DNA from: Kofleriaceae bacterium
GTDB lineage: Bacteria > Myxococcota_A > Polyangia > Haliangiales > Haliangiaceae
Length of the DNA: 23,441 nt
Direction: 5' to 3'
Assembly (NCBI GenBank): GCA_046597055.1
Contig: JBKJLC010000261.1
Location: forward strand, 1-23,441
Every line of letters begins with the position of its first letter. The first letter of the stretch is position 1. The notes beneath the pieces were generated by a model. That model saw nothing but the letters and a program-made list of their open reading frames with translations, had not been told where the DNA came from and did no database searches. Below are positions 261-23,355 of the stretch, piece by piece. The position numbers were made by a program, and so were the translations under genes.

Positions 261-752
261 TCAGCGGGCGCTGACGGCGAGCGTCCGGTAGCCGCGCCGG
301 TAGTAGACGAGCGGGGTCCGGTCGGGATGGGCCACCGCCTCCACGACCCGGCCGATGACGATCGCGTGATCGCCGACCGCCATCTCGCCATGGAGCTCGC
401 AGTCGAGGTAGGCGATCGCGCCGTGGACGACCGGCATCCCGGAGGTGGTGCGGTCTTCGGCGACGCCCTCGAAGGTCGGGGTCGGCTCGCGCCCGGACCG
501 GGCAAAGGCGGACGAGGCGTCGCCCTGATCGGACGACAGCAGGCTGACCGCGAACCGCTGCGACGCGCGCATCATCGGCGGCATCCGGCTGCTGCTGGCG
601 ATGCACACGATCACCAGCGGGGGCTCGAGGGACAGCGACGCGAAGCTCGAGACGGTCATGCCGTAGACCAGCCCGCCGGCGCGGGTGGCGACGATCGACA
701 CGCCCGAGGCCCACGAGGCGAGGGCGTCCTTGAAGTCGCTGGTGAGCGCCAT
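261..752 (-). CDS. Flavin reductase-like protein (HpaC/HsaB family), 163 aa
   Basis: C-terminal part of ORF 261..1799. MALTSDFKDALASWASGVSIVAT, SFASLSLEPPLV, GDHAIVIGRV and PLVYYRRGY are typical of the family. AGGAG Shine-Dalgarno upstream of ATG 752. Confidence 0.9.
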   Translation of the reverse strand: MALTSDFKDALASWASGVSIVATRAGGLVYGMTVSSFASLSLEPPLVIVCIASSSRMPPMMRASQRFAVSLLSSDQGDASSAFARSGREPTPTFEGVAEDRTTSGMPVVHGAIAYLDCELHGEMAVGDHAIVIGRVVEAVAHPDRTPLVYYRRGYRTLAVSAR

Positions 753-766
753 CGTGTGCTCCTGGA

Positions 767-1945
767 TCAGGCCGGGCCGCGCGGCAGGCCGAGCGCCCGC
801 GCCGCGATGATGTTGCGCTGGATCTCGCTGGATCCCGCGTAGATGGTGTCGGCGCGCGAGAACAGGAACGTCTCCTGCAGCGCGGTGAGCGTGTAGGGCT
901 CGCCCGCGATGATCTCGGCGTCGGCGCCGAGCACGTCCATCGCCAGCTCGCCGAGCTTGCGGTGCCAGGTCGACCAGAACAGCTTGCCGCCGAGCGCCTC
1001 GCGCGGCAGCTCGCCGCCCTCGCCGTGGCCCAGCACGCGCAGCGCGTTCCACCGCATCACCCGCAGGCCGATCCAGGCGTCGGCGAGGCGCTGGCGGAGC
1101 TGCGGATCGCGATCGGCGCCGCTCCGGCGCGCGACGTCGATGATCGCGTCGAGCTCGGAGGCGAAGCCGATCTGCTGGCCGAGCGTCGACGCGCCGCGCT
1201 CGAAGGCGAGGGTCGACATCGCGACCTTCCAGCCCGCGCCGATCGCGCCGACCACGTGGTCCTCGGGGGTGCGGGCGCCATCGAAGAACACCTCGCAGAA
1301 CTCGGCGGTGCCGGTCAGCTGGCGGATCGGGCGGACGTCGATGCCGGCCTGGCGCATCGGCACCAGCAGGTACGACAGGCCGTCGTGCCGGCGCGCGCCG
1401 GTGCTGGTGCGGCACAGGACGAAGCACCAGTCGGCGACGTGCGCGTGCGAGGTCCAGATCTTCTGGCCGGTGATGTGCCAGTGGCCGTCGACCAGCTCGG
1501 CGCGGGTCGACACGCCGGCGAGATCGCTGCCGGCGCCGGGCTCGGAGTAGCCCTGGCACCACAGCTGCTCGCCGCGCGCGATCGCGGGCAGGAACCGGGC
1601 CTGCTGCGCGGGCGTGCCGAGCGCGGCGATGGTCGGGGCCAGCAGGAACTCGCCGATGTGGCCGACCCGGCCCGGCGCCCGCGCCCGCGCGTACTCCTCG
1701 TGGAAGATCACCTGGCGCAGCAGGGACGCGCCGCGGCCGCCGGCGGCGCTGGGCCAGCCCAGGCCGATCCAGCCGGCGGCGCCGAGCGCGCGCTCCCAAC
1801 CGGTGCGCTCGGTGACGTCCTCGTGCTCGCGGCCGGGGCCGCCGCGGCCGCGCAGGTGCCGGAATTCGCCGTCGAGCCGGGTCTCGAGCCAGGTCCGTAC
1901 CTCGAGGCGAAAGGCCTCGTCGTCGGGCGAGAAGCGCAGGTCCAT
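767..1945 (-). CDS. Acyl-CoA dehydrogenase, IpdE1/FadE30-like subunit, 392 aa
   Basis: MDLRFSPDDEAFR start. GGPGREHE, WCQGYSEPGAGSDLA, GQKIWTS, FERGASTLGQQI and LFSRADTIYAGSSEIQRNII closely recall FadE30. ATG overlaps the upstream stop (TGATG). Confidence 0.88.
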   Translation of the reverse strand: MDLRFSPDDEAFRLEVRTWLETRLDGEFRHLRGRGGPGREHEDVTERTGWERALGAAGWIGLGWPSAAGGRGASLLRQVIFHEEYARARAPGRVGHIGEFLLAPTIAALGTPAQQARFLPAIARGEQLWCQGYSEPGAGSDLAGVSTRAELVDGHWHITGQKIWTSHAHVADWCFVLCRTSTGARRHDGLSYLLVPMRQAGIDVRPIRQLTGTAEFCEVFFDGARTPEDHVVGAIGAGWKVAMSTLAFERGASTLGQQIGFASELDAIIDVARRSGADRDPQLRQRLADAWIGLRVMRWNALRVLGHGEGGELPREALGGKLFWSTWHRKLGELAMDVLGADAEIIAGEPYTLTALQETFLFSRADTIYAGSSEIQRNIIAARALGLPRGPA

Positions 1946-3117
1946 CAGGGCACTCCGGTCATGCGCGGCGCGGTGGCGACGCCGAGGCCGAGCATACGCG
2001 CGACCTGCTCGCGATGGTGCGCGGGCGAGCCGAGCACGGTGCGACCGGCGCGCGCGCGCTTGAAGAACAGGTGGGCGTCGTGCTCGAAGGTGAAGCCGAT
2101 GCCGCCGTGGACCTGGATGGTGTCGGCCGCGCACTGGAAGAACGCGTCGCCGCAGTACGACCCGGCCGCCGCCGCCGCGGCGTCGAGCTCGTCGGGGGCG
2201 TGGGCCGCAGCCCAGCCCGCGTAGTACGCCGCCGAGCGCGCCGACTCGACCAGCACGAACAGCTCGGCCAGGGTGTGCTGGATCGCCTGGAACGAGCCGA
2301 TCGGGCGGCCGAACTGGTGGCGGACCTTGGCGTACTCGACCGACAGATCCAGGCAGCGCTGGGCGCCGCCGACCTGCTCGGCGGCCAGGCCGATGTGACC
2401 GAGCGCGAGCGCGCGCGCGATGGCGGGCCAGCCGCCGGCCCCGAGCGCGGCGCTGGCCGGGACCCGCACGTCGGTGAACCCGACCTCGGCCAGGGCGCGG
2501 GTCGCGTCCATGGTCGGCAGCCGGTGACGCTGCACGCCGGGGGTGGCGGCCGGGACCGCGTAGATTGCCAGGCCCTCGGTGCCCGCGCTGCCCGGCGCGC
2601 GCGCGATCACCAGCAGCAGGTCGGCGGTGTGGCCGTCGATGACGAAGCGCTTGGTGCCGTCGAGGATGATCTCGCCACCGGCGGCCGAGCGCGCGGTGGT
2701 CGTGATCGCCGCCGGATCGGGATCGCCGCTGGCCTCGAGCCAGGCCAGCGCCGCGGTGCCGTCGCCGCGCGCGATCGGCGGCAGCAACCGCGCGTGCTGG
2801 TCGGCGGTGCCCGTTTCGAGGATCGCGGCGGTCGCCAGGCACGCGGTCGACAGGAACGGCACGCACGCGAGCGCGCGGCCGAGCTCCTCCATCACCGCGA
2901 CCAGCTCGACCCAGCCGAGGCCGGCGCCGCCGTGCGGCTCGGGCACGATCAGCCCGGCCAGCCCGATCTCGCGCGCCAGCACCCGCCACAGCGGGGCGTC
3001 GTGATGGTCGGCGGTGAGCATCGCGCGCCGGGCCCCGGCGACTCCGCCGCCCGCGTCGAGGATGCGGCGGACGCTGCGCCGCAGCTCGTCTTGCTCGTCC
3101 GTGAACGCGAACCGCAT
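1945..3117 (-). CDS. Acyl-CoA dehydrogenase, IpdE2/FadE33-like partner subunit, 390 aa
   Basis: MRFAFTDEQDELR, TMDATRAL, LAAEQVGGAQRCL, RHQFGRPIGSFQAIQH, IQVHGGIGFTFEHDAHLFFKRA. Coupled to the IpdE1-like gene as in heteromeric ACADs. Confidence 0.82.
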   Translation of the reverse strand: MRFAFTDEQDELRRSVRRILDAGGGVAGARRAMLTADHHDAPLWRVLAREIGLAGLIVPEPHGGAGLGWVELVAVMEELGRALACVPFLSTACLATAAILETGTADQHARLLPPIARGDGTAALAWLEASGDPDPAAITTTARSAAGGEIILDGTKRFVIDGHTADLLLVIARAPGSAGTEGLAIYAVPAATPGVQRHRLPTMDATRALAEVGFTDVRVPASAALGAGGWPAIARALALGHIGLAAEQVGGAQRCLDLSVEYAKVRHQFGRPIGSFQAIQHTLAELFVLVESARSAAYYAGWAAAHAPDELDAAAAAAGSYCGDAFFQCAADTIQVHGGIGFTFEHDAHLFFKRARAGRTVLGSPAHHREQVARMLGLGVATAPRMTGVP

Positions 3118-3126
3118 CGGCAAAAG

Positions 3127-3140
3127 TAGAACATGTTCCA
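3127..3140. promoter_or_regulatory. KstR-type operator TAGAACATGTTCCA
   Basis: Exact match to TnnAACnnGTTnnA. Lies 9 bp upstream of the ACAD start, in a divergent intergenic region. Confidence 0.85.
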
Positions 3141-3269
3141 CTATGGCCAGCAAGCCCAGCGAGCGAAGCGAGCGTTCAACAATGACGCTGGGTGTGCGGG
3201 GTCACGATTCGAGTGCGAGATCTGATTTCATCCGGCTCTTCGAGTGGACCAGCGTGTTATACGGCCGGA

Positions 3270-4175
3270 ATGGTGCGTCTCCTCGAGGGTCGAGTCGCGA
3301 TCGTCACCGGCGCCGCGCGCGGGCTGGGCCGATGCCACGCGCTGGAGCTCGCGCGCCACGGCGCGCGCGTCGTCGTCAACGATCTGGGGGTCGAGCCGGA
3401 CGGGACCGGCGGCGCCAGCGGGCCGGCCGACCAGGTCGTCGCCGAGATCCGGACCAGCGGTGGCGAGGCGATCGCCAACGGCGACGACGTCGCCGACTGG
3501 GACGGCGCGCGTCGGATGATCGCGGCCGCGGTCGACACCTGGGGCCGGCTCGACGTGCTGGTCAACAACGCTGGCTTCCTGCGCGATCGCATGTTCGCCA
3601 ACGCCAGCGAGGACGAGTGGGACGCGGTCATGCGGGTCCACCTCAAGGGCCACTTCGCGCCGGCCCGGCACGCGGCCGGCCACTGGCGTGACGCCGCCAA
3701 GCGCGGCGAGCCGGTCGACGCGCGCATCATCAATACCACCTCGGGCGCCGGCCTCCAGGGCAGCATCGGCCAGGCCGCCTACGCCGCGGCCAAGGGCGGC
3801 ATCGCGGCGCTGACGCTGGTGCAGGCCGCCGAGCTCGGCCGCTACGGCGTGACCGCCAACGCGATCGCGCCGGCCGCGCGCACGCGCATGACCGAGACCG
3901 CGTTCGCCGCGGCGATGAAGGCGCCCGACACCGGCTTCGATGCGATGGCGCCCGACAACGTGTCGCCGCTGGTCGCCTGGCTGGCCAGCGCCGAGTCGCG
4001 CACGATCAGCGGCCGGGTGTTCGACGTCTCCGGCGGCACCATCGCCGTCGAGGACGGCTGGCGGCCGGGCCCGAAGGTCGAGCGCGACGCGCGCTGGGAC
4101 GCCCGCGAGCTCGGCGGCGTGGTGACCGAGTTGGTCGCGAGCGCGCCGGTGCCGGCCCCGGTCTGGGGGGCGTGA
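3270..4175 (+). CDS. Short-chain dehydrogenase/reductase, Rv3548c-like, 301 aa
   Basis: TGAARGLG Rossmann motif, NNAG and YAAAK catalytic motif. RDRMFAN..DEWDAVMRVHLKGHF and NAIAPAARTRMTE recall sterol-cluster SDRs. Confidence 0.88.
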   Translation: MVRLLEGRVAIVTGAARGLGRCHALELARHGARVVVNDLGVEPDGTGGASGPADQVVAEIRTSGGEAIANGDDVADWDGARRMIAAAVDTWGRLDVLVNNAGFLRDRMFANASEDEWDAVMRVHLKGHFAPARHAAGHWRDAAKRGEPVDARIINTTSGAGLQGSIGQAAYAAAKGGIAALTLVQAAELGRYGVTANAIAPAARTRMTETAFAAAMKAPDTGFDAMAPDNVSPLVAWLASAESRTISGRVFDVSGGTIAVEDGWRPGPKVERDARWDARELGGVVTELVASAPVPAPVWGA

Positions 4176-5599
4176 GCGTGCGCACCGCGGCGGCCTGCGC
4201 GCTGGCGCTCGCGGCCTGTGGTGGCGGCGAAGGCGACGCTGAGGGTCGCCTGCCCGAGGCGCGGCGCTGCGCGATCGACGCCCCACCTCCGGGCGCGCTG
4301 CACGCCGAGGGTACTCGCATCGTCGACGACGCCGGCCGCACGGTCACCCTGCGCGGGATCAACACCGGGGGCCGCGCCAAGTTCGCGCCGTACGCGCCGT
4401 TCGAGTACGCCGAGGGCGGCTACGACGCCGCGCTCGCCGCCTACCTCGATCGCGCGGCGAGCTGGGGCTTCGACGTCCTGCGGGTGCCGTTCTCGTGGCA
4501 CGCGCTGGAGCCGATCCGCGGCGAGGTCGACGAGGCCTACCTGGCCCGCTACGACGCGCTCCTCGACGGCGCGTGGGCGCGCGGGATGTGGACGATCGTC
4601 GACTTCCACCAGGACGTCTACGCCGAGCCGCTGTGTGGCGACGGCTTTCCGTCGTGGACGCTGGTCGATCCCCCGGCGCCGCGTCGCGACTGCCCCAACT
4701 GGGCGCACGGGTACGAGAACGACCCGCGCGTGCAGGCCGCGTTCGATGGGTTCTGGTCCGACGCGACCGGCGTGCAGACGGCGTTCCGCGCGATGTGGAC
4801 GCGCATGGTCGCGCGGCACCGGGCGCGCCCGGGCGTGATCGGCTACGAGCCGATCAACGAGCCGCATCCGGGCACCGGCGACCGCATCGCGTGGGAGGAG
4901 GGCCCGCTGACCACGTTCTACAGCGAGATGGCCGCGCTGATCAACGCAGGCGATCCGGGCGCGCTGGTGTTCGTCGACACCACCGGCTTCGAGGCCGTGA
5001 TCGGCCAGACCTCGCTGCGACGTCCGAGTGGTGACGGCATCGTGCTGGCGCCGCACTCGTACGATGCCGGGGCGCTGCTCGGCGGCGACCCTGACCCCGA
5101 CGTGCACGCGCGGCTGGCCAAGTGGGCTGCGCTCGGCGCGACGTGGGACGCGCCGGTGCTGATCGGCGAGATGGGCATGCCGGTCGACAACCCGCACGCC
5201 GCGATGCACGGGCGCCGGCACATGGATGCGCTCGATCAGCTCGGGATCGGCGCGACCTGGTGGGAGTACAGCGTGTCGTCCGAGCTGTGGAACCACGAGA
5301 ACTTCTCGATCGTCGCGGCCGACGGCACCGAGCTGCCGATCGTCGACGAGCTGGCGCGGCCGTACCCGCGCGCGCTGGCCGGCACGGCGCCGGTGGCGAG
5401 CTACCGGCCCGAGCCGGGTCGCTTCACGATCGAGTGGGCCCCGGCTGGCGACGCGCCGACCGAGCTGGCGGTGCCGACCCGCTGGGGTGCGGTCCGCATC
5501 GGCGCCGAGGGCGCGTGCGTCGCCGAGGCGGCCGGCACCGTGCGGGTCCAGGCCGACCCCGGTGCGACGCTCGTGCGCGTGTCGATCGAACGGAAGTGA
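4172..5599 (+). CDS. GH5 glycoside hydrolase lipoprotein, endoglycoceramidase-like, 475 aa
   Basis: Lipobox LAAC (Cys16). LRGIN, SWHALEP..G..DEAYL, DFHQDVY, GDGFP.W, INEP (acid/base), PHSY, IGEMG (nucleophile), RPYPRA. GTGA overlap with the SDR stop. Confidence 0.85.
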   Translation: MSVRTAAACALALAACGGGEGDAEGRLPEARRCAIDAPPPGALHAEGTRIVDDAGRTVTLRGINTGGRAKFAPYAPFEYAEGGYDAALAAYLDRAASWGFDVLRVPFSWHALEPIRGEVDEAYLARYDALLDGAWARGMWTIVDFHQDVYAEPLCGDGFPSWTLVDPPAPRRDCPNWAHGYENDPRVQAAFDGFWSDATGVQTAFRAMWTRMVARHRARPGVIGYEPINEPHPGTGDRIAWEEGPLTTFYSEMAALINAGDPGALVFVDTTGFEAVIGQTSLRRPSGDGIVLAPHSYDAGALLGGDPDPDVHARLAKWAALGATWDAPVLIGEMGMPVDNPHAAMHGRRHMDALDQLGIGATWWEYSVSSELWNHENFSIVAADGTELPIVDELARPYPRALAGTAPVASYRPEPGRFTIEWAPAGDAPTELAVPTRWGAVRIGAEGACVAEAAGTVRVQADPGATLVRVSIERK

Positions 5600-5729
5600 T
5601 CCGCAGCGGTCGCGTGCGCCGCGACGTGATCGGTGGCGAGCCCGGCCCCGCTTCATCGGCAGCCCCGGCGGAACCGTCACGTTCGCTTCGTGTCGACGGG
5701 CAGGCGGCAGGCCTCTGGATCCCACACAT

Positions 5730-5888
5730 CTTCCCGGTGGCCCTGCGCCAGGGCGAGCGCACGCGAGCCCGCCGTCGAAGGGCAGCCCGTCGAAGTTCAC
5801 GTGCGGCACCTTGGCGCGCTGCCCGCTGCTCGCTGCCCGCTGCCCTTCGACACGGCGCCTTCGGCGCCGGCTCAGGGACACCGGGAAG
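5730..5888. repeat. REP-like composite inverted-repeat element, copy 1
   Basis: Arms CTTCCCGGTG/CACCGGGAAG and GTCGAAGGGCAGC (5774-5786)/GCTGCCCTTCGAC (5839-5851). Shares 35 bp (1 mismatch) and 16 bp (exact) with 10759-10876. Confidence 0.8.
5818..5845 (+). repeat. Tandem heptamer GCTGC(C/T)C x4
   Basis: gctgccc gctgctc gctgccc gctgccc read directly. Confidence 0.75.
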
Positions 5889-5982
5889 GGGGGGAGCGCT
5901 TTCGATCACATGGAGACTTGTGGTCAATCCCGAGGGCAGCGCTCTGGATCCCGCCCATCTTCCCGGTGGCCGTGAGCCAGGG

Positions 5983-6150
5983 CGAGCCGAGGCGGGGGCA
6001 AGGTCCCAGAGCGCTCGTAAATTCCACGGCCGGGTGGTGAGCGCGTCGGCAAGCTGAGGCAATGGCACCGCCCAGCGAGACGCCCGGGGACCCCGGATCG
6101 AGCCAGCGACGGGACCTTGGCCTTGCCGACGGCGAGTCCGGCTGCGCGTG
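5983..6150. repeat. ~168-bp structured dispersed repeat, copy B
   Basis: ~84% identical to 15-183. Arms CAAGGTCCC (5999-6007)/GGGACCTTG (6111-6119). Confidence 0.85.
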
Positions 6151-6160
6151 ACGCGCGCGG

Positions 6161-7729
6161 TCAGGACTGCAGGAGGCGGGCGCGCAGCTCGGTCTTGAGG
6201 ACCTTGCCGGACGCGTTCTGGGGCAGACGGTCGACGATCTCGAACCGGCGCGGGACCTTGTAGTTGGCCATGCGCGCGCGGCTCCAGGCCAGCAGCTCGG
6301 CGGGGTCGGGCGCGGTGTCGGGGCGCGGGACCACGAAGGCGATGCCGACCTCGCCGAGGCGGTCGTCGGGGGCGCCGACCACGGCGACCTGGGCGATGCC
6401 CGGGTGACGGAGCAGCACGCCCTCGATCTCGGCCGGGTAGGCGTTGAAGCCGCCGACGATGAACATGTCCTTCTTGCGATCGGTGATGCGCAGGTAGCCG
6501 CGCGCGTCGAGGGTGCCGATGTCGCCGGTGCGCAGCCAGCCGGCCGCGTCGATGGTGGCGGCGGTGGCCTCGGGGTCGTCGAGGTAGCCGCGCATGACGT
6601 TGTAGCCGCGCACGACCACCTCGCCGGCGACGCCGGTGGCGACCGGCACGCCGGCGTCGTCGACGATCGCGACCTCGACGCCGGGGATCGCGCGGCCCGA
6701 CGTGGTCGCGACGGTCTCGGCGTCGTCGCCGTCGCGGCACAGGGTCGCGGTGCCGGTGGTCTCGGTGAGGCCGTAGCCGGTGAGCACGGTGGCGAAGCCG
6801 AGGTCGGTGCCCATGCGGCGCACCAGCTCGACCGGCACGTTGGCGGCGCCGGTGACCGCGAGCCGCAGCGACGAGAGATCGACCGCGGCGCGGCCGGGGT
6901 GGGCGAGCAGCGCCAGGTACAGCGTCGGCGGGCCGGGCAGGACCGTGATGCGGTGCTCGGCGATCTGCGCCATCACGCGCTCGACGTCGAACACCGGCGC
7001 CGGATACACGATGGCGCCGGTCTGCAGCGCGGCCAGCCAGCCGGCCTTGTAGCCGAAGCTGTGGAAGAACGGCGCGACCACCAGGTAGCGGTCGCCGTGG
7101 CGGAGCCCGACCAGCTCGCCCCAGGTCGCGAACACGCGCAGGGTCTGGGCGTGGGTGGCCGGGATCGCCTTGGGCCGGCCGGTGGTACCCGAGGTGAACA
7201 TGAGGTCGCCGACGTCGTCGGGGCTGACCGCGGCCGCGGCTCGCGCCAGCTCGGCGTCGGTCACCGCCGCACCGCGCGCGACCAGCGCGGCCCAGCCGAT
7301 CGCCGCGTCGTCGGCCTCGCCGGTCACGGCGATCGTGGTCAACGCCGGCAGCGCCACGCCGCTCGCGCGCAGCATCGCCGGGTAGCGCGCGCCCAGGAAG
7401 TCACCGACCGTGATCAGCACGCGCGCGCGGCTGCGGGCCAGCACGTCGGCGGCCTCCGCGCCCTTGTAGCGGGTGTTGATCGGCACCAGCACCGCGCCGA
7501 TCGTGTGCGCTCCGAGCGCCGCGACGATCCACTGCCAGCAGTTGGGCGCCCAGATCGCGACCGCGTCGCCGTGGCCGACCCCGCTCGCGAGCAGCGCGCG
7601 GGCGAGCTCGTCGGCCCGCGCCGCCAGCGCCGCGGTGGAGAGTCGGACCTCACCGTCGACCACCGCCAGCTCGTCGGGCCGGTCGAGCGCGGCCCGGGCG
7701 AGCAGCCCCCCGATCGTGGCCGCGGTCAT
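6161..7729 (-). CDS. fadD3: Acyl-CoA synthetase, FadD3-like (HIP-CoA ligase), 522 aa
   Basis: MFTSGTTGRPK AMP-binding motif, PFFHSFGYKAG, ITVLPGPPT, AVTGAA, YGLTE, CRDGDDAETVATTSGR, TGDIG, KDMFIVGGFNAYPAEIE. ATGA overlap with the upstream gene. Confidence 0.82.
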   Translation of the reverse strand: MTAATIGGLLARAALDRPDELAVVDGEVRLSTAALAARADELARALLASGVGHGDAVAIWAPNCWQWIVAALGAHTIGAVLVPINTRYKGAEAADVLARSRARVLITVGDFLGARYPAMLRASGVALPALTTIAVTGEADDAAIGWAALVARGAAVTDAELARAAAAVSPDDVGDLMFTSGTTGRPKAIPATHAQTLRVFATWGELVGLRHGDRYLVVAPFFHSFGYKAGWLAALQTGAIVYPAPVFDVERVMAQIAEHRITVLPGPPTLYLALLAHPGRAAVDLSSLRLAVTGAANVPVELVRRMGTDLGFATVLTGYGLTETTGTATLCRDGDDAETVATTSGRAIPGVEVAIVDDAGVPVATGVAGEVVVRGYNVMRGYLDDPEATAATIDAAGWLRTGDIGTLDARGYLRITDRKKDMFIVGGFNAYPAEIEGVLLRHPGIAQVAVVGAPDDRLGEVGIAFVVPRPDTAPDPAELLAWSRARMANYKVPRRFEIVDRLPQNASGKVLKTELRARLLQS

Positions 7730-8313
7730 GCCGCGGCGGACTGGGTGTGCGCGCGCTCGAGGTGCGCGGCGATCTTGTTGGCGAGGTCCTCGGCGGCCGG
7801 GAGCAGCGCCGGGCCGAGCATCGCGTTGACCAGCGGCCCGGTCGGTCCGCCCGCATCCATGCGCAGGGTGAACGTGAGCCGGGTGCCGGCGACGCGCTCG
7901 CCGGTGAGCCGCTTGGGCCCGTCGCCGTGCATGCGGCGGAACATGCGGCGGGCCATCCAGTCGAGGATGCGGCGGCCGAACCAGCGCCGCTTCGGCTTGA
8001 CCGGGGCCGGTGCGTCGGCGGTGACGCCCTCCATGACCAGCACGCCGCCGCCATCGACCTTCTCGTTGAGGCCGGTGAGCGTGAAGGTGACCCGCTCGCC
8101 GTCGACCCACTCGGTGACGTGGGCTTGCAGGCGCACGACCCGCGACAGGATCCCGACGTCGCCCTTGAGGGTCCACACCGAGTCGGTGTCGTCGAGGATC
8201 TCGTGCTTCTGGTAGCCGGTCAGCATCGGCGCCCAGTTGTTCATGTCCTTGACGAACTGCCAGACGACGTTGCCGGGCAGGGCGATGCGGGTGGCGTACT
8301 CGACCTCGGGCAT
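7726..8313 (-). CDS. SRPBCC/CoxG (START-like) domain protein, 195 aa
   Basis: VWQFVKDMNNWAPMLTGY N-terminus, beta-rich core and C-terminal helix (GPLVNAMLGP..AEDLANKI). GGAGG Shine-Dalgarno; operonic between kstD-like and fadD3-like genes. Confidence 0.72.
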   Translation of the reverse strand: MPEVEYATRIALPGNVVWQFVKDMNNWAPMLTGYQKHEILDDTDSVWTLKGDVGILSRVVRLQAHVTEWVDGERVTFTLTGLNEKVDGGGVLVMEGVTADAPAPVKPKRRWFGRRILDWMARRMFRRMHGDGPKRLTGERVAGTRLTFTLRMDAGGPTGPLVNAMLGPALLPAAEDLANKIAAHLERAHTQSAAA

Positions 8314-8322
8314 GACGGCCTC

Positions 8323-9978
8323 CTACTTCTGCTCGCGGGCGGCGGCGTGGCGACCGGCCAGGTAGCCGAACGTCATCGCCGCGCCGATGGTGGCGCCGGC
8401 ACCCGGGTAGCCGGCGCCGGTCACGCCGGCCATGACGTTGCCGGCCGCGTACAGCCCGGCGATCGCGGTGCCGTCGGGGCGCAGCACGCGGGCGTCGCCG
8501 TCGGTACGGGCGCCGCCCTTGGTTCCGATCGCGCCGGGGTGGACCTGGATCGCGTAGAACGGCGCCTTCTCGACCGTGCCGAGGTTCGGGTTCGGCTTGT
8601 GGTCGGGGTCGCCGTAGAAGTGATCGTAGAGGCTCTCGCCGCGGCGGTAGTCGGGGTCGGCGCCCTCGACCGCGAACCGGTTGAACCGGGTCACGGTCGC
8701 GGTCAGGCCGCGCGGGTCGACGCCGATCATGGCCGCCAGCGCCTCGAGCGTGTCGGCCCGGGTCAGCCACTCGGGGATCGGCATGCCGGGCACGTACGTC
8801 ATCAGCGCGTACCGATCGAGGTACTGCTGATCGACGATGATCCAGGCCGGCAGGTTGCGGCGCTCGTAGGCGACCGGGTCGAAGGCGAAGAACGCCTTCA
8901 TCAGATCGTTGTAGTTGTGGGCCTCGTTGACGAACCGCTGGCCGGCGCGATTGACGATCACGCTGTGGGGTAGGGAGCGGGTCGCGAAGTCGCCGCGGTT
9001 GAGCGGGCGCTGGTCGTACTCCTCGCCAGGGATCTCGAGCGACGGGCACCACCACGCCTCGCTCATGTTGCCGAGGTCGGCGCCGAGCGACATCGCCATC
9101 TTCAGGCCGTCGCCCTCGAGCGACGGGGGGCTGTTGGGGTGGGTGAGCGGGCCACCCAGGAACCGGCGGCACAAGTCAGGGTTCCACTCGAAGCCGCCGC
9201 TGGCGAGGACCACGCCGCGCCGGGCGCTGATCAGGATCTCCTTGTCGCCCTGCCGGGCCCGGACGCCGACCACCCGATCGTCGTCGACCAGCAGCTCGTC
9301 GGCCGCCGCGCCCAGCATCGGCTCGATGCCGCGATCGAGCAGCGCCTTCAGCAGGCCGCCGGCGAGCGCGCCGCCGTAGCAGACCAGGCCCTGCTTGAAC
9401 CGCTTGCCGAGCAGGCTGAACGGCAGCGCCTGCGGCTTGGAGAACACGCCCCAGTCGGTCGCCTCGCTGACCGACATGGCGGTCATGCCGAACACCGGCG
9501 AGCGGCGCAGCTTGTCCTTCCAGGTCCCGAGCGTGTTGGTGTCGAACAGGCCGGGATCGAGCGAGCGGCCCCCGGAGCGGCCCCCGGCGAACTCCGGATG
9601 ATAGTCGGGGTAGCGGGCCAGCGCCTTGAAGGCGATCGGGGTGGCGCCCTCGACGAAGTCGAGCATCTCGGGCGCGGTCTCGAGGTAGCGGCGGATGAGC
9701 GCCGGCTCGCTGCGACCGTCGGCCAGCCGGGTGACGTACCCGATCGCCTCGTCGAGTGAGTCGGCGATGCCGAGCGCGGCCATGTGCTTGTTGCACGGCA
9801 CCCAGACCACGCCGCCGGACACGGCGGTGGTGCCTCCGAACTTGTCGGTCTTCTCGAGGACGGCGACCCGGGCCTTGCCGGCGTGGGCGGCGAGGGCGGC
9901 GACCGCCCCGGCGGCGCCACTGCCGATCACCACGACGTCGACCTCCAGGTTCCACTTGATCGACTTACGAAACCACAT
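8323..9978 (-). CDS. kstD: FAD-dependent 3-ketosteroid delta1-dehydrogenase-like protein, 551 aa
   Basis: DVVVIGSGAAG, GGTTAVSGGVVWVP, YPDYHP, GVVLASGGFE, RFVNEAHNY, GTKGG, GLYAAGN and YPGAGATIG. The three Tyr-containing motifs of KstD appear present; Delta1 versus related specificity is not proven. Confidence 0.78.
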   Translation of the reverse strand: MWFRKSIKWNLEVDVVVIGSGAAGAVAALAAHAGKARVAVLEKTDKFGGTTAVSGGVVWVPCNKHMAALGIADSLDEAIGYVTRLADGRSEPALIRRYLETAPEMLDFVEGATPIAFKALARYPDYHPEFAGGRSGGRSLDPGLFDTNTLGTWKDKLRRSPVFGMTAMSVSEATDWGVFSKPQALPFSLLGKRFKQGLVCYGGALAGGLLKALLDRGIEPMLGAAADELLVDDDRVVGVRARQGDKEILISARRGVVLASGGFEWNPDLCRRFLGGPLTHPNSPPSLEGDGLKMAMSLGADLGNMSEAWWCPSLEIPGEEYDQRPLNRGDFATRSLPHSVIVNRAGQRFVNEAHNYNDLMKAFFAFDPVAYERRNLPAWIIVDQQYLDRYALMTYVPGMPIPEWLTRADTLEALAAMIGVDPRGLTATVTRFNRFAVEGADPDYRRGESLYDHFYGDPDHKPNPNLGTVEKAPFYAIQVHPGAIGTKGGARTDGDARVLRPDGTAIAGLYAAGNVMAGVTGAGYPGAGATIGAAMTFGYLAGRHAAAREQK

Positions 9979-9993
9979 GGGTGTGAGCAGAAG

Positions 9994-10007
9994 TGAAACA
10001 TGTTCTA
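9994..10007. promoter_or_regulatory. KstR-type operator TGAAACATGTTCTA
   Basis: Exact TnnAACnnGTTnnA between the divergent kstD-like and tetR genes. Confidence 0.85.
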
Positions 10008-10029
10008 GTAGAGCCGCGCAAGCAGCATC

Positions 10030-10043
10030 GAGAACATGTTGCG
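10030..10043. promoter_or_regulatory. Degenerate operator GAGAACATGTTGCG
   Basis: AACATGTT core conserved, outer T/A lost. Confidence 0.6.
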
Positions 10044-10059
10044 TTCCTCACGTACGGGT

Positions 10060-10073
10060 GCGAACCTGTTCCG
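10060..10073. promoter_or_regulatory. Degenerate operator GCGAACCTGTTCCG
   Basis: GAAC-CT-GTTC core immediately before the likely tetR GTG start. Confidence 0.5.
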
Positions 10074-10075
10074 AA

Positions 10076-10735
10076 GTGAGCGCAGCGAGCAAGGAGAAGG
10101 ATCGCGGTATCTTCGACAGGATCTTCGACGTCGCGATCTCGCTCGCTGAAGAGGGCGGCTACGACAACGTCCGCCAGCGCGACGTGGCGGCCCGGGCCGG
10201 GGTCGCCCTGGGCACGCTGTACAAGCGCTTCCGCAGCAAGGAAGACATCCTGTCCGCCGCGCTCGAGCGCGAGACCGAGAAGCTCGAGCGCAAGATCGAG
10301 AAGGGCCCGGTCCAGGGCGGCTCGGTCGAGGATCGCCTGGTCGCGTTCTATACGATGCTGACCAAGGCGCTGTGCCGGCGGCCCCACTTCGCGCGCGCGG
10401 TGCTGCGCGCGATGGCGTCGGGCCAGCCCGAGGTCGCCAAGCACGTGGTCGCCTATCAGGGCCGGATGAACGGCCTGATCATCGCCGCGATGCGCGGGGT
10501 CGGCAGCCTCAGCTACGGGGACGCAGCGGTGACCCCGCCCACCGAGCGCGAGCAGACGCTGGCGTTGCTGCTGCAGCAGATCTGGTTCGCGTCGCTGATC
10601 GGCTGGTCGGCCGGGCTGCACAGCCAGCCCGCGGTGCTCGAGCATGTCCGCACCGCCGCCCGGCTGTTCCTGCGGTCGCTCGATCTCGAGGCCAAAGAGC
10701 AGAAGCCGGCCAAGTCCGTCGCGACCGCGCGCTGA
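10076..10735 (+). CDS. kstR: TetR-family regulator, KstR-like, ~219 aa (start uncertain)
   Basis: HTH GGYDNVRQRDVAARAGVALGTLYKRFRSK recalls KstR GGYEAVQMRAVADRADVAVGTLYRYFPSK. C-terminal PTE.EQ..A....IW...L..W pattern is also KstR-like. Cognate operators adjacent. Confidence 0.8.
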   Translation: MSAASKEKDRGIFDRIFDVAISLAEEGGYDNVRQRDVAARAGVALGTLYKRFRSKEDILSAALERETEKLERKIEKGPVQGGSVEDRLVAFYTMLTKALCRRPHFARAVLRAMASGQPEVAKHVVAYQGRMNGLIIAAMRGVGSLSYGDAAVTPPTEREQTLALLLQQIWFASLIGWSAGLHSQPAVLEHVRTAARLFLRSLDLEAKEQKPAKSVATAR

Positions 10736-10758
10736 GCCGGTCGAGCCGGACACTCACC

Positions 10759-10876
10759 CCCGTTCGTCCTGAGCCCGAGCGAGCGCACGCGAGCTCGGTG
10801 TCGAAGGACGGCCTTCACACCGTCGGACACCCGCCCTTCGACACGGCGCCTGCGGCGCCGGCTCAGGGCGAACGGG
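10759..10876. repeat. REP-like composite inverted-repeat element, copy 2
   Basis: CCCGTTCGTCCTGAGCC/GGCTCAGGGCGAACGGG and GTGTCGAAGG/CCTTCGACAC arms with internal hairpins; directly downstream of the tetR stop. Confidence 0.82.
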
Positions 10877-10951
10877 AGGGCCGGTTTCACGCGTGCGAGC
10901 TGTTTCGATCGACAAGCGAGCCGGCACCGAAATCTTGCTTGCTGGCTGGAA

Positions 10952-10965
10952 TGGAACATGTTCTA
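10952..10965. promoter_or_regulatory. KstR-type operator TGGAACATGTTCTA
   Basis: Exact reverse complement of 3127-3140. Palindrome extends to GAAT.GAACATGTTC.ATTC. Upstream of the Mce/Mla operon. Confidence 0.85.
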
Positions 10966-11103
10966 TTCAGCCTCGACCGCAGTCGCGCATCGGTGCGCGG
11001 CCGCCCGGCCGTGCTCGACGAGCCGGCCTCGGTGCGCGGCCCTGCCACGCAGGCAACCGTCAGGTCGCGAGCCGGGACTACACGCCAGCATGTCGAGCGG
11101 CGC

Positions 11104-11117
11104 TAGAACATGTATCA
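11104..11117. promoter_or_regulatory. Near-consensus operator TAGAACATGTATCA
   Basis: One mismatch to TnnAACnnGTTnnA, 57 bp before the ATPase start. Confidence 0.65.
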
Positions 11118-11174
11118 CTCGCGCCCGGCCCCACCCGCTGGGTGCGCCGATGCCGTGGCGCCACCTGGTGAGCG

Positions 11175-11876
11175 ATGCCCGCTGACGATCGCGGCTGGGC
11201 GGTCGAGCTGGTCGAGGTCGACAAGCGCTTCGGCGCCCGCCGCGTGCTCGGCGACGTCACCCTGCGGGTCGCCCGCGGCGGCCGGCTCGGCATCATCGGC
11301 CCGGCCGCGGCCGGCAAGAGCGTGCTGCTCAAGCTGGTGGCCGGGCTGCTGCGCCCCGACGGCGGCAGGGTCCACGTCAGCGGTCGCATCGGCATGCTGT
11401 TCCAGAACAGCGCGCTGTTCGACTTCCTCACCGTCGCCGAGAACGTGGCGTTCCCCCTGGTGCAGGCGGGCGGCGTCGCCGACGACGAGATCGCGGCGCG
11501 GGTCGCGGCCCGGCTCAAGGCGGTCGGCCTGGCTGGCTCCGAGCGCAAGGTGCCCTCGGAGCTGTCGGGTGGCATGAAGAAGCGGGTCGGCCTGGCCCGC
11601 GCCACCGTCGCCCGGCCCGAGGTCGTCCTCTACGACGAGCCGACCGCCGGGCTCGACCCGGTCACGACCGCCAAGGTCTATCAGCTCCTGCGCGACGATC
11701 ACGATGCCGGCGGTGGCACCGCGATCGTGGTGTCGTCGGACGTCGAGGCCGTGGCCGGGTTCGCCGACACCATCGCGTTCGTCGACGACGGCCGGGTCCG
11801 CTGGGTCGGGCCCGCGGTCAGCCTGCTCGACGCCGACGACCCGCAGGTGCGCGCGTTCGCGCGGGGGACCGCATGA
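11175..11876 (+). CDS. ABC ATPase, MlaF/MceG-like (1), 233 aa
   Basis: [43 protein letters not shown]. Confidence 0.9.
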
Positions 11877-12649
11877 ACCTGCGCGGCTCGGTCGCCGCGC
11901 TCGGCGGGCGCACCATGGGCGCGGCCCGCGACGCCGGCGGCATCGTCGTGCTCGCGTACGAGGTCGGGCGCTCGCTGGTGCCGCCGCGGCTCGACGGCCG
12001 CGAGCTGATCCGCAACCTCTACAAGATGGGCTTCAAGTCGGTGCCCATCGTGGTCATGACCGCGCTGTTCGTGGGCGCGCTGATGGTGATCCAGTTCGCC
12101 GCGTTCGTGAAGCAGTACGGCGCCACCGGCATGATCGGCTGGGGCACCGGCTACGCGGTGCTGCGCGAGGTCGGCCCGCTCCTGATCGGCCTGATGTTCT
12201 CGGGTCGGGTCGGCGCCAACAACGCCGCTGAGCTGGGCACGATGACGGTCACCGATCAGATCGACGGCCTGCAGGCGCTGGCGATCGATCCGATCCGCTA
12301 CCTGATCGTGCCGCGGGTGCTGGCGATGATGATCACGCTGGTGGTCATGACGATGATCGGCGACGCGGTCGCGATCTGCGGCGTGATGCTGGCGTCGCAC
12401 GCGCTGCTCGACATCCACCCGTACACGGTCTGGTACGGGCTGGTCGACAACCTCGGCGCCGGCGACTTCCTGCACGGCATGGCCAAGGCGCTCGTGTTCG
12501 GCGCCGCGATCGCGCTGTCGTCTTGCTACTACGGCCTGACCGTCCAGGGCGGCGCGGTCGGGGTCGGTCGCGCGGTCAACTCGGCGGTGGTGAGCGCCGC
12601 GGTGTCGATCTGCTTCCTCGACTTCCTCATGACGTACCTCACCAACTGA
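11873..12649 (+). CDS. MlaE/YrbE-family permease (1), 258 aa
   Basis: [58 protein letters not shown] overlap. Confidence 0.92.
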
Positions 12650-12654
12650 GCCCC

Positions 12655-13464
12655 ATGTCTGCCCTCCGTCGCACCGTCACCTCCGTCGGCGCCAGCACCC
12701 TGGCCACCGTCGCGGCGGCCACCGAGCTGGCCTCGGTCGCGGCCCAGACCGTGGCGGGCGCGGTGTTCGGCTACTGGCGTGGCAAGCGGCCGCGTGGCGC
12801 GATCGCGCGCCAGCTCTACCTCATCGGCAACCGCTCGCTGCCGTTCGTGCTGGTCACGCTCGGGTTCGTCGGGATGGTGATGGTCTACCAGACCTGCCTC
12901 CTCACCACCCGGATCGTCGACGGCCGCAACCAGGTCGGCCAGCAGTGGGCCCGCCTGCTGGTGCTCGACGTCGGACCCAGCCTGACCGCGATGATGCTGG
13001 CGACCCGGGTCGGCGCCGGCATCGCCGCCGAGATCGGGTCGATGAAGGTGACCGAGCAGCTCGACGCCCTGCAGATGTCGGGGGTGACGCCGATCCGCTA
13101 CCTGATCGTCCCGCGCTTCTTCGCCTGCGTGATCATGACGGTGGTCCTGACCATGTTCGGCATGGCCGCGTCGTGGGCGGCCGGCGGGGTGACCGGCTAC
13201 TACTCGTTCCAGATCAACCCGCGCATCTTCTTCGACCTGGCGATGGTGAAGCCGGCCCACGTCGCGGTGTGCCTGGTGAAGGCGCTCGCGTTCGGCGCGG
13301 CGATCCCGATCGTGAGCGGCTTCTGCGGCCTGCGCGCGCGCGGCAGCTCGGAGGGCGTGGGCGGCGCCGCCACCGCGGCGGTGATCGGCTCGAGCTTCGC
13401 GGTGCTGGTGCTCGACGTCCTGATCTCGTGGGGGGCGCTGGTCCTGTTCGGAGCCGGGATGTGA
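12655..13464 (+). CDS. MlaE/YrbE-family permease (2), 269 aa
   Basis: [48 protein letters not shown]. Confidence 0.92.
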   Translation: MSALRRTVTSVGASTLATVAAATELASVAAQTVAGAVFGYWRGKRPRGAIARQLYLIGNRSLPFVLVTLGFVGMVMVYQTCLLTTRIVDGRNQVGQQWARLLVLDVGPSLTAMMLATRVGAGIAAEIGSMKVTEQLDALQMSGVTPIRYLIVPRFFACVIMTVVLTMFGMAASWAAGGVTGYYSFQINPRIFFDLAMVKPAHVAVCLVKALAFGAAIPIVSGFCGLRARGSSEGVGGAATAAVIGSSFAVLVLDVLISWGALVLFGAGM

Positions 13465-14213
13465 TCGAGCTCCGCGGCGTACACAAGGCGTTCGGGGGCC
13501 GGCCGGTGCTGGCCGGGGTCGATCTGATGGTCGGCCGCGGCGAGGTGGTGTGCGTGGTCGGCACCTCCGGCGTCGGCAAGTCGGTGACGATCAAGCACCT
13601 GGTCGGCTTCCTGCGGGTCGACGCCGGCGAGATCTGGTTCGACGGTCGCCGCATCGACGACCTGCCCGACCGCGAGTTCGCCGCGATCCGGCGCCGGATC
13701 GCGATGGTGTTCCAGAGCTCGACCCTGTTCGACGCGATGACCCTGGCCGAGAACGTCGCGCTGCCGCTGCGCAAGCACCGCCGCATGCGGGCGGGCGCCG
13801 CGCTGGTCGAGGCCCGGCGCCGGCTCGAGGAGGTCCACCTCGCCGAGCTCGGCGACCGATACCCGGCCGAGGTGTCCGATGGCGTGCGCAAGCGGGCCGC
13901 GATCGCGCGGGCGCTGACGATCGAGCCCGAGGTCGTGCTGTTCGACGAGCCGACCACCGGCCTCGACCCGACCAGCGCGCGCCGGATCGACCGCCTGATC
14001 CGCGAGCTCGCCGATCGCCGCGGCGTCACCGCGATCGTGGTGTCGCACGATCTCACCTCGATCTTCGCGATCGCCGATCGGATCGCGCTGCTCTACCGCG
14101 GCGTGGTCCACGCCTGCGGCACCCCCGGCGAGATCCGCGCCTCGGCGGACCCGGTCGTCCTCCAGTTCATCCATGGCCGCGCCGCCGGGCCCATGGAAAC
14201 CCCCGGCTTCTAG
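13461..14213 (+). CDS. ABC ATPase, MlaF/MceG-like (2), 250 aa
   Basis: GTG overlapping the upstream stop. GTSGVGKS, MVFQSSTLFD, VSDGVRKRAAIARAL, LFDEPTTGLDP, VSHD. Confidence 0.9.
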   Translation: MIELRGVHKAFGGRPVLAGVDLMVGRGEVVCVVGTSGVGKSVTIKHLVGFLRVDAGEIWFDGRRIDDLPDREFAAIRRRIAMVFQSSTLFDAMTLAENVALPLRKHRRMRAGAALVEARRRLEEVHLAELGDRYPAEVSDGVRKRAAIARALTIEPEVVLFDEPTTGLDPTSARRIDRLIRELADRRGVTAIVVSHDLTSIFAIADRIALLYRGVVHACGTPGEIRASADPVVLQFIHGRAAGPMETPGF

Positions 14214-14221
14214 GAGCTCCC

Positions 14222-15238
14222 ATGCGTGACGACGGCGTCGAGTACAAGGTCGGGTTGCTGATGGTGACGGCGGTGGCGCTGTTCGCCGTGTTCATCTTCG
14301 TGCTCGGGCGGTTCTCGCTCAGCAGCGGGTTCACGCTGTACGCGGACTACGAGTACAGCGGCAACGTCCAGACCGGGGCGCCGGTGAAGGTCTCGGGCAT
14401 CACGGTCGGCCGGGTCGAGGCGGTCGAGTTCCGCGGCGGCCAGCTCGATCCGGCGACCGGCCGGCGGGTCCAGGTCCGGGTCGAGCTGTGGATCGAGGAC
14501 CGCGCCCGCGACTCGATCCGCGGCGACGCCGAGTTCTTCGTCAACACCGCCGGTGTGCTCGGCGAGCAGTACGTCGAGATCGTGCCGGGCCGGAACTGGG
14601 AGGCGCCGCCGCTGGCGGCGGGCTCGATCATCGTCGGGGTCACCCCGCCGCGCACCGACCTGGTGGTCGCGCGGCTGTACGAGCTGCTCGACATCATGAC
14701 CGCGGTGATGCGCAAGGATCGCGACAAGATCGCGGCGATCATCACCAACGCGGCGCACGCGGTCGACCAGGTTGACGGGATCCTGGTCGAGAACCGGCCC
14801 AAGGTCGGCGGCCTGATCGACGCGGTCACCGGGCTCGCGCTCGAGAGCCAGCAGGTGCTGGCCAAGGTCGACGATGGCCTCGATAGCCGCCAGATCGCGG
14901 CGACCCTGCGCCACGCCGACGGCCTGCTGGTCACCGCCGACAAGACGCTGGCCGAGGCCGGTCCGGCGACCGGCGCGCTGATGCGCGAGGGCGTGCGGGT
15001 GCTCGAGCTCGCCACCGAGGCGCGGGTCGAGCGAACCCTGGTCGCGGTCGATCGCGCGGCCGGCGCCGCCGACCAGGCCGGGACGCTCATGCGCAACGCC
15101 AACGGCGCGCTCACCGACGTCCGGGCCGGCAAGGGCTCGATCGGCGCGTTGCTCACGCGGCTCGACGTCTACGCCGACGTCCGCGAGATGGTGCGCGACC
15201 TGCGGCGTAACCCGTGGAAGCTGATCTGGAAGGAGTGA
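14222..15238 (+). CDS. MCE/MlaD-domain protein with helical extension (1), 338 aa
   Basis: N-terminal TM (KVGLLMV...), GAPVKVSGITVGRV, TAGVLGEQYVEIVPG. AGGAG Shine-Dalgarno. Confidence 0.9.
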   Translation: MRDDGVEYKVGLLMVTAVALFAVFIFVLGRFSLSSGFTLYADYEYSGNVQTGAPVKVSGITVGRVEAVEFRGGQLDPATGRRVQVRVELWIEDRARDSIRGDAEFFVNTAGVLGEQYVEIVPGRNWEAPPLAAGSIIVGVTPPRTDLVVARLYELLDIMTAVMRKDRDKIAAIITNAAHAVDQVDGILVENRPKVGGLIDAVTGLALESQQVLAKVDDGLDSRQIAATLRHADGLLVTADKTLAEAGPATGALMREGVRVLELATEARVERTLVAVDRAAGAADQAGTLMRNANGALTDVRAGKGSIGALLTRLDVYADVREMVRDLRRNPWKLIWKE

Positions 15239-15242
15239 CCGG

Positions 15243-18694: not shown

Positions 18695-18720
18695 CCGCGG
18701 TGACCGGGCCCGCGGTCAGC
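18690..18720. terminator. Hairpin between convergent genes
   Basis: Perfect 11-bp arms GCTGACCGCGG/CCGCGGTCAGC with a 9-nt loop, containing both stop codons. No U-tract. Confidence 0.55.
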
Positions 18721-21700: not shown

Positions 21701-22014
21701 CATGCAGTAGAACGGCTCGCCGCTGTCCAGCGTGCCCAGGTCGTAGACCGGCACGATCGCGGGGTGCTGGAGGCGCGCGGTGATGCGCGCCTCGCGGGCG
21801 AAGCGGGCGCGCTGGTGCGGGTCGAGCGCGATCAGCTCCTTGACCGCGACCGGCCGGGTCAGCCGCGCGTCGTAGGCGCGCCGGACCCGGCCCATGCTGC
21901 CGCGCGCGACCTCGTCGCCGAGGAAGTAGCGATCGTCACCTGCGGTCGGCGCCGCCAGATCGGGCCCGCCGAGCTCGGGTCCAGCGTCGTCGATGGTGAC
22001 GTTGTGCGGCCGCA

Positions 22015-22015
<1 letters not shown>
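18716..22015 (-). CDS. Ser/Thr protein kinase with WD40 repeats, ~1099 aa
   Basis: [37 protein letters not shown]; hydrophobic segment; many GH...D.TVR.WD repeats. TGATG overlap with the upstream gene. Confidence 0.92.

Positions 22016-23355
<1,340 letters not shown>

Follow-up and report, generated by a model that had tools for sequence, protein, structure and literature searches.

We analyzed a 23,441-nt window of DNA, contig C1 of an 8.4-Mb metagenome-assembled genome (MAG) in 303 contigs, for operators of the steroid-responsive repressor KstR. The host is evidently an uncultured soil myxobacterium related to the Kofleriaceae (Myxococcota). Four strong palindromes in the window are KstR-type operator sequences, likely bound by the TetR protein encoded beside them, which would repress a whole predicted sterol degradation pathway, including the genes for the C and D rings, until released by a steroid-CoA intermediate; the probability of this reading as a whole is about 0.75. 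Since the basic KstR switch is already known, both the type of repressor and its motif, the gain lies in the wiring: a single tier of control in which C/D-ring genes stand under a KstR box. Genes were called with a codon model of our own and then scanned against Pfam and NCBIfam profiles. Genomes are denoted by G numbers (G000 is the present genome), contigs of G000 by C and fetched loci by L. The repressor gene and the six palindromes considered here are as follows.

10076–10735, plus strand: KstR-type TetR repressor of 219 aa, over the cut-off of PF17925.
3127–3140: strong KstR-type operator (26.6 bits), in the divergent gap between an operon of paired acyl-CoA dehydrogenases with an hsaB-like gene and an operon of a short-chain dehydrogenase/reductase (SDR) and a family 5 glycoside hydrolase (GH5).
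9994–10007: strong KstR-type operator (27.0 bits), the main site of the kstD/kstR gap.
10030–10043: weak site (8.9 bits) that departs from the consensus at both terminal bases and overlaps the predicted kstR −35 element (TTGCGT, 10039–10044).
10060–10073: very weak site (4.2 bits), coinciding with TGnGAnnnT (10059–10067), the predicted extended −10 element.
10952–10965: strong operator (26.6 bits), flanked in relatives by two divergent lipoprotein genes that this genome has lost.
11104–11117: operator (20.5 bits), one mismatch from TnnAACnnGTTnnA, 57 bp before mlaF and matching the site that precedes a FadL-like gene in relatives.

A sequence-only reading of this DNA had described six KstR boxes that together define a regulon, three of them perfect and three degenerate. 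All six 14-mers lie where it placed them, and those at 3127 and 10952 are, as it said, exact reverse complements. The sites at 3127, 9994 and 10952 match the consensus TnnAACnnGTTnnA perfectly and are its only exact matches in the window (3 versus 0.01 expected; none of 100 shuffles reached 3), but they are not perfect palindromes, having 6, 5 and 6 of 7 pairs complementary, respectively. The proposed common core AACATGTT is indeed present, exactly at 3130, 9997, 10033 and 10955 and with one base off in the sites at 10060 and 11104. The weight matrix that gave the scores above was trained on 14 intergenic sites, all from other contigs, so that the window sites were scored out of sample. The scores of the sites at 10030 and 10060 are equaled at 263 and 1568 genome positions, respectively. 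Because of the low scores and uneven conservation of the sites at 10030 and 10060, we rejected the idea of six equivalent operators: only four are strong, and these are 4 of the 25 sites of at least 17 bits in the genome. The earlier reading mentioned neither a myxobacterial host nor C/D-ring genes behind the box. The Rv0223c site of Mycobacterium tuberculosis (Mtb), which has the same first-base change as 10030, was negative in an electrophoretic mobility shift assay. Matches with one mismatch at 8672, 13198 and 13719 were also discarded as operators; all lie in coding DNA, and that at 8672 scores −2.9 bits. At the position of the 3127 site, a 27-bit box is found in all five relatives whose locus covers it (L001, L008, L010, L011 and L022), and a minus-strand TTGC lies 13–14 bases from the box.

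The gap between kstD and tetR is 97 bp long (9979–10075) if tetR starts at the GTG at 10076, and it contains three of the sites, as the same reading had it. The autoregulation that it proposed from this arrangement is likely, with the 9994 box kept in 12 of 12 relatives that have the kstD/tetR layout. This box is present throughout the 13 kstD/kstR gaps that we aligned. Also conserved in these gaps is TTG[CT], followed 17–18 bases on by TGnGAnnnT (spacing recovered in 12 of 13); the latter element occurs in all 13 promoters, 6–9 bases 5′ of the start codon. We read the two elements as the predicted −35 and extended −10 of kstR, whose transcript would then have a short leader or none. The 10030 site reaches at least 8.9 bits in nine of the 13 promoters and is lost in four, while the 10060 site is operator-like in only four, with 20.7 bits in L006. 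Divergent gaps rarely contain sites that score like these two (0.0014 and 0.022 expected per 97 bp, respectively). From the conservation pattern, the promoter overlap and the rarity of such scores, 10030 is a probable weak auxiliary operator, whereas 10060 appears to be mostly a promoter element. A TTG[CA] lies 13–14 bases upstream of 44 of 89 strong boxes (6 of 25 in G000), a spacing that would place the box over the promoter spacer and the −10 element, as was also described for the mycobacterial kstR promoter (Kendall 2007, PMC1995591).

G000 encodes a single PF17925 protein, the TetR. Its best match by sequence is Mtb KstR (E = 3e-19, about 30% identity), which is also its best fold match in the PDB (the structure model, with a pLDDT of 67, was built without an alignment and used for fold ranking only). 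The helix-turn-helix aligns well with that of Mtb KstR and is near-invariant in 37 homologues, while ligand-domain residues preceding a conserved Trp differ between the two proteins. The ligands in the Mtb KstR structures are 3-oxo-steroid-CoA esters (PDB titles 5CW8 and 5CXI). By its profile scores, the protein is KstR-like but outside the actinobacterial equivalog. The 14-bp operator TnnAACnnGTTnnA is that of mycobacterial and rhodococcal KstR (Rv3574/MSMEG_6042; PMC1995591). The arrangement resembles the KstR regulon in several further respects: an A at −2 and a T at +2 are often kept (29 of 50 G000 flanks), boxes occupy divergent gaps and the repressor's own promoter, the repressors share a C-terminal Pfam family, and the boxed genes include those for side-chain and A/B-ring degradation and Mce-type uptake. 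It differs in having a Gram-negative myxobacterial host, a repressor so distant in sequence, and an operator center that is mostly AT.

The strict consensus occurs at 50 sites in G000, compared to 9 in a Markov-4 simulation, and 21 of the 50 are intergenic, compared to 12.6% of the DNA. The 25 sites of at least 17 bits comprise the 4 in the window, 10 on C298/C48/C117, 8 on C70/C161/C31/C56 and 3 on C41/C66/C115. The contigs C298, C48 and C117 could be joined through 117-bp end overlaps into about 82 kb, the C48–C117 join lying within a repeat. Boxed side-chain genes encode ltp3/ltp4-type thiolases, a FadD19-type ligase, EchA19 and a P450; the FadD19-, EchA19- and Ltp3/4-type genes pass their profile cut-offs, and the P450 could not be assigned to the sterol C26 family. 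For the A/B rings, the boxed set includes two KshA, HsaA/C/D/E/F/G-like proteins and a second KstD, and for the C/D rings echA20-ipdA-ipdB-ipdC-echA13, an ipdF-type SDR, a thiolase and FadD3. The names ltp3/4, fadD19, ipdF, echA20, echA13 and fadA6 were taken from PRK model numbers, which we presume to correspond to these mycobacterial genes. IpdA matches the rhodococcal and Mtb structures with E = 4e-101 and 4e-97, respectively. Boxed in addition are an F420-dependent enzyme with cofD/cofE/cofG/cofH, an SCP2 sterol-carrier protein and a GMC oxidoreductase. Homologues of KstD, KshA, HsaA–D and IpdAB, an apparent 9,10-seco pathway set, thus occur together in G000, several of them below actinobacterial cut-offs; kshA, hsaA, hsaC and hsaD are likewise found in the aerobic degraders surveyed outside the mycolic-acid actinobacteria (PMC4810484, PMC5790920). 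No oxidosqualene cyclase was found in G000 (30.6 bits versus 851), and no RNA run containing this DNA is on record.

Several features of these loci stand apart. The genes cofD, cofE, cofG and cofH and one for an F420:NADP oxidoreductase lie inside boxed operons (C48:11548–14886 and 18574–21724; L038 and L039), and cofG follows the SDR in the loci of nine of 10 relatives. Boxed genes with no known role in the pathway occur on C70, at C31:22528–23067, C56:40230–40874 and C161:16616–18220; several are family-less, one encodes a thioesterase-like protein and another a GMC oxidoreductase behind two boxes, and two band-7 proteins are encoded nearby. A 19-bit site at C48:23585 (L124:3302), in the end of ipdA just before ipdB, is kept in seven of 10 relatives and is a candidate for either a coding constraint or an internal operator.

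The actinobacterial KstR governs the genes for uptake, the side chain and the A/B rings, while KstR2 (Rv3557c) controls about 15 C/D-ring genes through the motif AnCAAGnnCTTGnT; the KstR2 promoters include Rv3549c/echA20 and fadE30/fadD3 (PMC3068626, PMC5380842). Homologues of these KstR2 targets (echA20, ipdA/B/C, an ipdF-type SDR, fadD3, acyl-CoA dehydrogenases and a thiolase) are present here. The divergent SDR/echA20 layout is shared as well, but where it carries a KstR2 box in Mtb (Rv3549c/Rv3550), the G000 promoter (C48:21754) carries a 26.6-bit KstR box, and echA20 likewise has a KstR box in front of it in all 10 of the family relatives that possess the gene. Similarly, fadD3, a KstR2-regulon gene in mycobacteria (Crowe 2017, Table 1, PMC5380842), is coupled to kstD behind the 9994 box, and the ipdF-type SDR lies behind another. 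Unlike in the actinobacterial KstR regulon, from which C/D-ring genes are excluded, echA20-ipdABC, ipdF and fadD3 are boxed here; so are cofD/E/G/H and the MlaFFEEDD transporter, and relatives also have a boxed FadL-like channel.

The KstR2 motif AnCAAGnnCTTGnT has three exact matches in G000, all coding; no intergenic match within one mismatch was found on the 10 G000 contigs scanned, and it occurs at none of 32 and one of 20 ipdA loci in the two sets described below. No KstR2 orthologue was found in G000 by profile or structure matches, made in a 94% complete genome and with no direct KstR2 query. At E values of 1e-8 or lower, the two TetR_C_24 proteins, on other contigs, match TetRs that are unnamed or of FadR type, and not KstR2. 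A six-frame search for a KstR2 signature was negative, a weak test because the published pattern is specific to Mycobacteriaceae.

The phylum sample contained 85 ipdA-positive genomes, and we examined 52 ipdA loci, G000 included. Of the first 32, six had a KstR box and 21 another 16-bp palindrome with the consensus AACGATACGTATCGTT. A further 20 loci, 17 of them picked for many boxes, had a KstR box before echA20 in 17 cases and the second motif in none. In total, 23 loci have the KstR box, 21 the second motif, none both and 8 neither (contig ends truncate at least 2 of the 8); since the second motif was discovered in the same loci and the 20 were chosen, these shares are not frequencies. The AACGATACGTATCGTT palindrome (L059–L083, L122:1501 and L123:1501), neither of KstR nor of KstR2 type, is located in ipdAB promoters of loci from other Myxococcota lineages and, in G206, also at a further site flanked by genes of C/D-ring type. 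It is absent from the G000 steroid clusters. Its count over 301 genomes (0–5 matches, 0 in G000) equals the control and is uninformative. We consider it a candidate operator of an undescribed second-tier regulator.

The presence of KstR-type operators next to a KstR-type TetR, as originally proposed, was borne out by the distribution of the motif, which goes with the TetR from genome to genome. The family sample comprised 81 genomes: 12 have an orthologue (at least 73% identity) and carry 16–46 exact TRRAACNNGTTYYA sites, while the 67 lacking one carry 0–7 (two of these, the unpublished G072 and G077, support none of our claims). The remaining two have a diverged homologue, 1 and 2 sites (G006 and G046, respectively) and no ipdA; their KstR-like genes (G006:C5:26606–27175 and G046:C176:4586–5107) may be orphan or repurposed regulators. 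A KstR homologue was found in 92 of 300 further phylum genomes. The other 208 include seven with at least 10 sites, four of which have an equally high reversed-pattern control. Of 37 homologue loci, 10 had no box within the fetched flank; a box at the TetR's own promoter was also found in more distant loci labeled Polyangiaceae.

The sites at 10952 and 11104 are relics of a deleted block, now placed before the Mla operon. In 11 of the 12 relatives with the layout, the interval between kstR and mlaF contains two divergent lipoprotein-like genes (called from their N-termini; they have no Pfam family) and a gene for an outer-membrane protein of the FadL/OMPP1 family (PF03349, detected in L001 but not in L002), with a strong box between the lipoprotein-like genes and often a second, weaker one. 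An example is L001:10685–13894. The block is deleted in L006 as well as in G000, where the window has no counterpart of it at 10736–11174 and the genome no orthologues of its three genes. Three collinear matches to L005 remain (E = 3e-4 to 5e-3, calculated for the stretch compared), the 11104 region being collinear with L005 7622–7651. The missing block together with these collinear remnants identifies the two sites as its leftovers:

10931–11132, plus strand: decayed lipoprotein/FadL block, with its promoter, a lipoprotein gene fragment (11035–11082) and the second box.

A misassembly as the cause of the missing block is unsupported across 10840–11700: a single contig of run X1 matches it without differences, and X1 and X3, possibly the source samples, each have one contig that agrees over 10847–11700. 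The repeat at 10784–10840 is spanned by none of the contigs listed. A related strain, X4, has 24 differences and five gaps over 351 bp, none listed within the 10952 or 11104 sites, at a depth of 3 that is too weak to count. Where present, the boxed lipoprotein/FadL block is a candidate for a Gram-negative route of sterol entry.

In the mechanism that we propose, sterols would enter through the Mla/Mce transporter (plus the FadL-like channel in relatives) and be converted by the P450 and the FadD19-type ligase to 3-oxo-steroid-CoA esters. The TetR dimer, bound across the spacer and −10 of sigma70-type promoters, would block RNA polymerase until these esters free the operators, so that uptake, side-chain, ring and F420 genes open together. 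KstR would limit its own synthesis through the 9994 site, with 10030 as a probable weak second site. With KstR boxes also before the late ring genes, one repressor likely switches the whole pathway, the late genes together with the early ones, in contrast to the mycobacterial KstR2, which senses methylhexahydroindanedione propionate-CoA (HIP-CoA). The idea that eukaryotic prey supplies the sterols is a guess.

A number of observations weigh against this interpretation. The TetR is only about 30% identical to Mtb KstR and scores 109.4 bits on NF033703, under the KstR equivalog cut-off of 280. KstD, HsaA and HsaD do not reach their NCBIfam cut-offs; for KstD, a cyclohexane dehydrogenase model gives 489 bits, close to the 497 of the KstD model. 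The intergenic excess of the matrix is partly circular, since it was trained on intergenic sites of the same genome; the three sites of at least 17 bits on C41, C66 and C115 are away from steroid genes, and several boxed genes (on C70, C31 and C56) have no family. The 92 KstR-positive phylum genomes have a median of 6 sites; 31 have at least 10, and 12 have two or fewer. Conversely, G118, G145 and G361 (97, 95 and 85% complete) lack a PF17925 match although they contain ipdA and 27, 21 and 13 boxes, respectively, which either counts against a strict link between motif and TetR or reflects gaps in the MAGs. Since related genomes are not independent, we claim no statistical test. Finally, with a completeness of 94% and a contamination of 7.6%, the G000 assembly might lack a second regulator.

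Such a regulator is the basis of one alternative, in which KstR does act at the boxes, but a hidden HIP-CoA-sensing protein, missing from the assembly or too diverged to detect, controls the C/D-ring promoters as well, making the system two-tiered. The incompleteness of an assembly in 303 contigs, the lack of a direct KstR2 query and the second palindrome at ipdA in other Myxococcota lineages (21 of 32 loci) leave some room for it. However, the G000 steroid clusters contain no KstR2 motif and no second palindrome, the KstR box and the second palindrome share none of 52 ipdA loci, and no six-frame KstR2 signature was found, weak as that Mycobacteriaceae-specific test is; we therefore regard a hidden second tier as unlikely. 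The regulon might also be real but serve another polycyclic lipid, such as bile acids, triterpenoids or alicyclic acids, with an inducer other than a 3-oxo-sterol-CoA. The ring enzymes below actinobacterial cut-offs, the unplaced P450 and the altered residues before the ligand-domain Trp would fit this, but the cholesterol-type side-chain genes that pass their cut-offs, and the boxed SCP2 domain and Mce-type importer, make it rather improbable.

It is slightly less probable still that a different protein binds the palindromes, while the KstR-like TetR travels with the steroid cluster and has drifted to another site or role. The low identity to Mtb KstR, the 10 of 37 boxless homologue loci and the three genomes with boxes and ipdA but no detected KstR speak for such drift. 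Against it, the motif equals the published KstR motif, a box sits at the TetR's own promoter both in close relatives and in the distant Polyangiaceae-labeled loci, and the three exceptions are fragmented MAGs of 180–610 contigs, one of which (G118) belongs to the same genus as G269, which has the KstR gene. An ordinary KstR regulon on actinobacterial DNA misbinned into a myxobacterial MAG might be suspected from the 7.6% contamination and from a gene set and motif of actinobacterial type. This explanation is largely refuted and has only a minimal chance: the closest relatives of the TetR (72–86% identity) are in at least 12 MAGs labeled Kofleriaceae or Myxococcales, with the same gene order, and the contig, which overlaps C83, also carries MlaFE/D, an FHA-sigma54 activator and a kinase-WD40 gene.

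The genes beside the boxes, and the other annotated features of the window, are as follows.

261–3117, minus strand: two acyl-CoA dehydrogenases (1945–3117 and 767–1945) and an HsaB-like flavin reductase (261–752).
3270–5599, plus strand: SDR that passes the cut-off of the PRK07791 subfamily, with a GH5 endoglycoceramidase-like glycosidase coupled to it.
6161–7729, minus strand: FadD3-family CoA ligase of the HIP-CoA synthetase type (NF005801, 734.6 bits, above the cut-off of 657).
7726–8313, minus strand: START/polyketide-cyclase-fold protein (PF10604), coupled to kstD.
8323–9978, minus strand: KstD-like 3-ketosteroid dehydrogenase (best PDB match 7P18, E = 4e-105; NF009478, 497 bits, below the cut-off of 789).
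10750–10880: dispersed repeat resembling repetitive extragenic palindromic (REP) elements, with 50–120 genome hits per position.
11175–16259, plus strand: MlaF-MlaE-MlaE-MlaF-MlaD-MlaD (Mce-type) ABC transporter, from profile scans, with its gene order kept 3′ of kstR in relatives.

The paired dehydrogenases are predicted to be FadE33/FadE30-like, a subfamily assignment by inference; a homologue of the 767–1945 gene adjoins ipdF in L013–L015, L018 and L123. The MlaFFEEDD transporter is a predicted sterol importer. The GH5 gene (4172–5599), coupled to the boxed SDR, has a weaker match to the fungal sterylglucosidase SglA (E = 2e-10) and occurs in only one relative locus (L010); its product could release sterols from steryl glucosides. 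Inverted REP-like repeats at 10750–10880 and 5733–5889 have more than 100 copies in the genome, and many contigs terminate in the repeat. A 792-aa gene 3′ of the Mla operon (16316–18694) has no Pfam or NCBIfam match; in the Atlas, it resembles Myxococcota proteins as well as clusters of heparinase II/III-like or DUF4962 type. The Ser/Thr kinase-WD40 protein and the FHA-sigma54 activator, typical of myxobacteria, are encoded at 18716–23355, with no box nearby.

While mycobacterial KstR and its operator are well studied, and control there is described as two-tier (PMC1995591, PMC3068626, PMC5380842), we found no literature joining KstR or steroid degradation with Myxococcota in a search of the main texts of freely accessible papers. 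The terms “Myxococc”, “Haliangi” and “delta” are absent from the main texts of Bergstrand 2016 (PMC4810484) and Holert 2018 (PMC5790920), whose supplements may list such genomes. The same operator, present about 20 times per genome and wired to the late genes, provides a candidate list of genes for sterol uptake and of genes without a known role, in a Gram-negative soil lineage that these main texts do not name among steroid degraders. The wiring also makes the possible use of prey sterols by predators, and the origin of two-tier control, accessible to testing. It is possible, if somewhat doubtful, that many myxobacteria are unrecognized sterol eaters with the full cholesterol pathway of actinobacterial type on one KstR switch, that the single tier is the older state to which a second tier was added twice and independently (KstR2 in mycobacteria, the undescribed regulator of the 16-bp operator in other Myxococcota), and that the FadL-like channel, the lipoproteins and MlaFFEEDD take the place of Mce4 in these Gram-negative bacteria and bring in sterols of eukaryotic prey.

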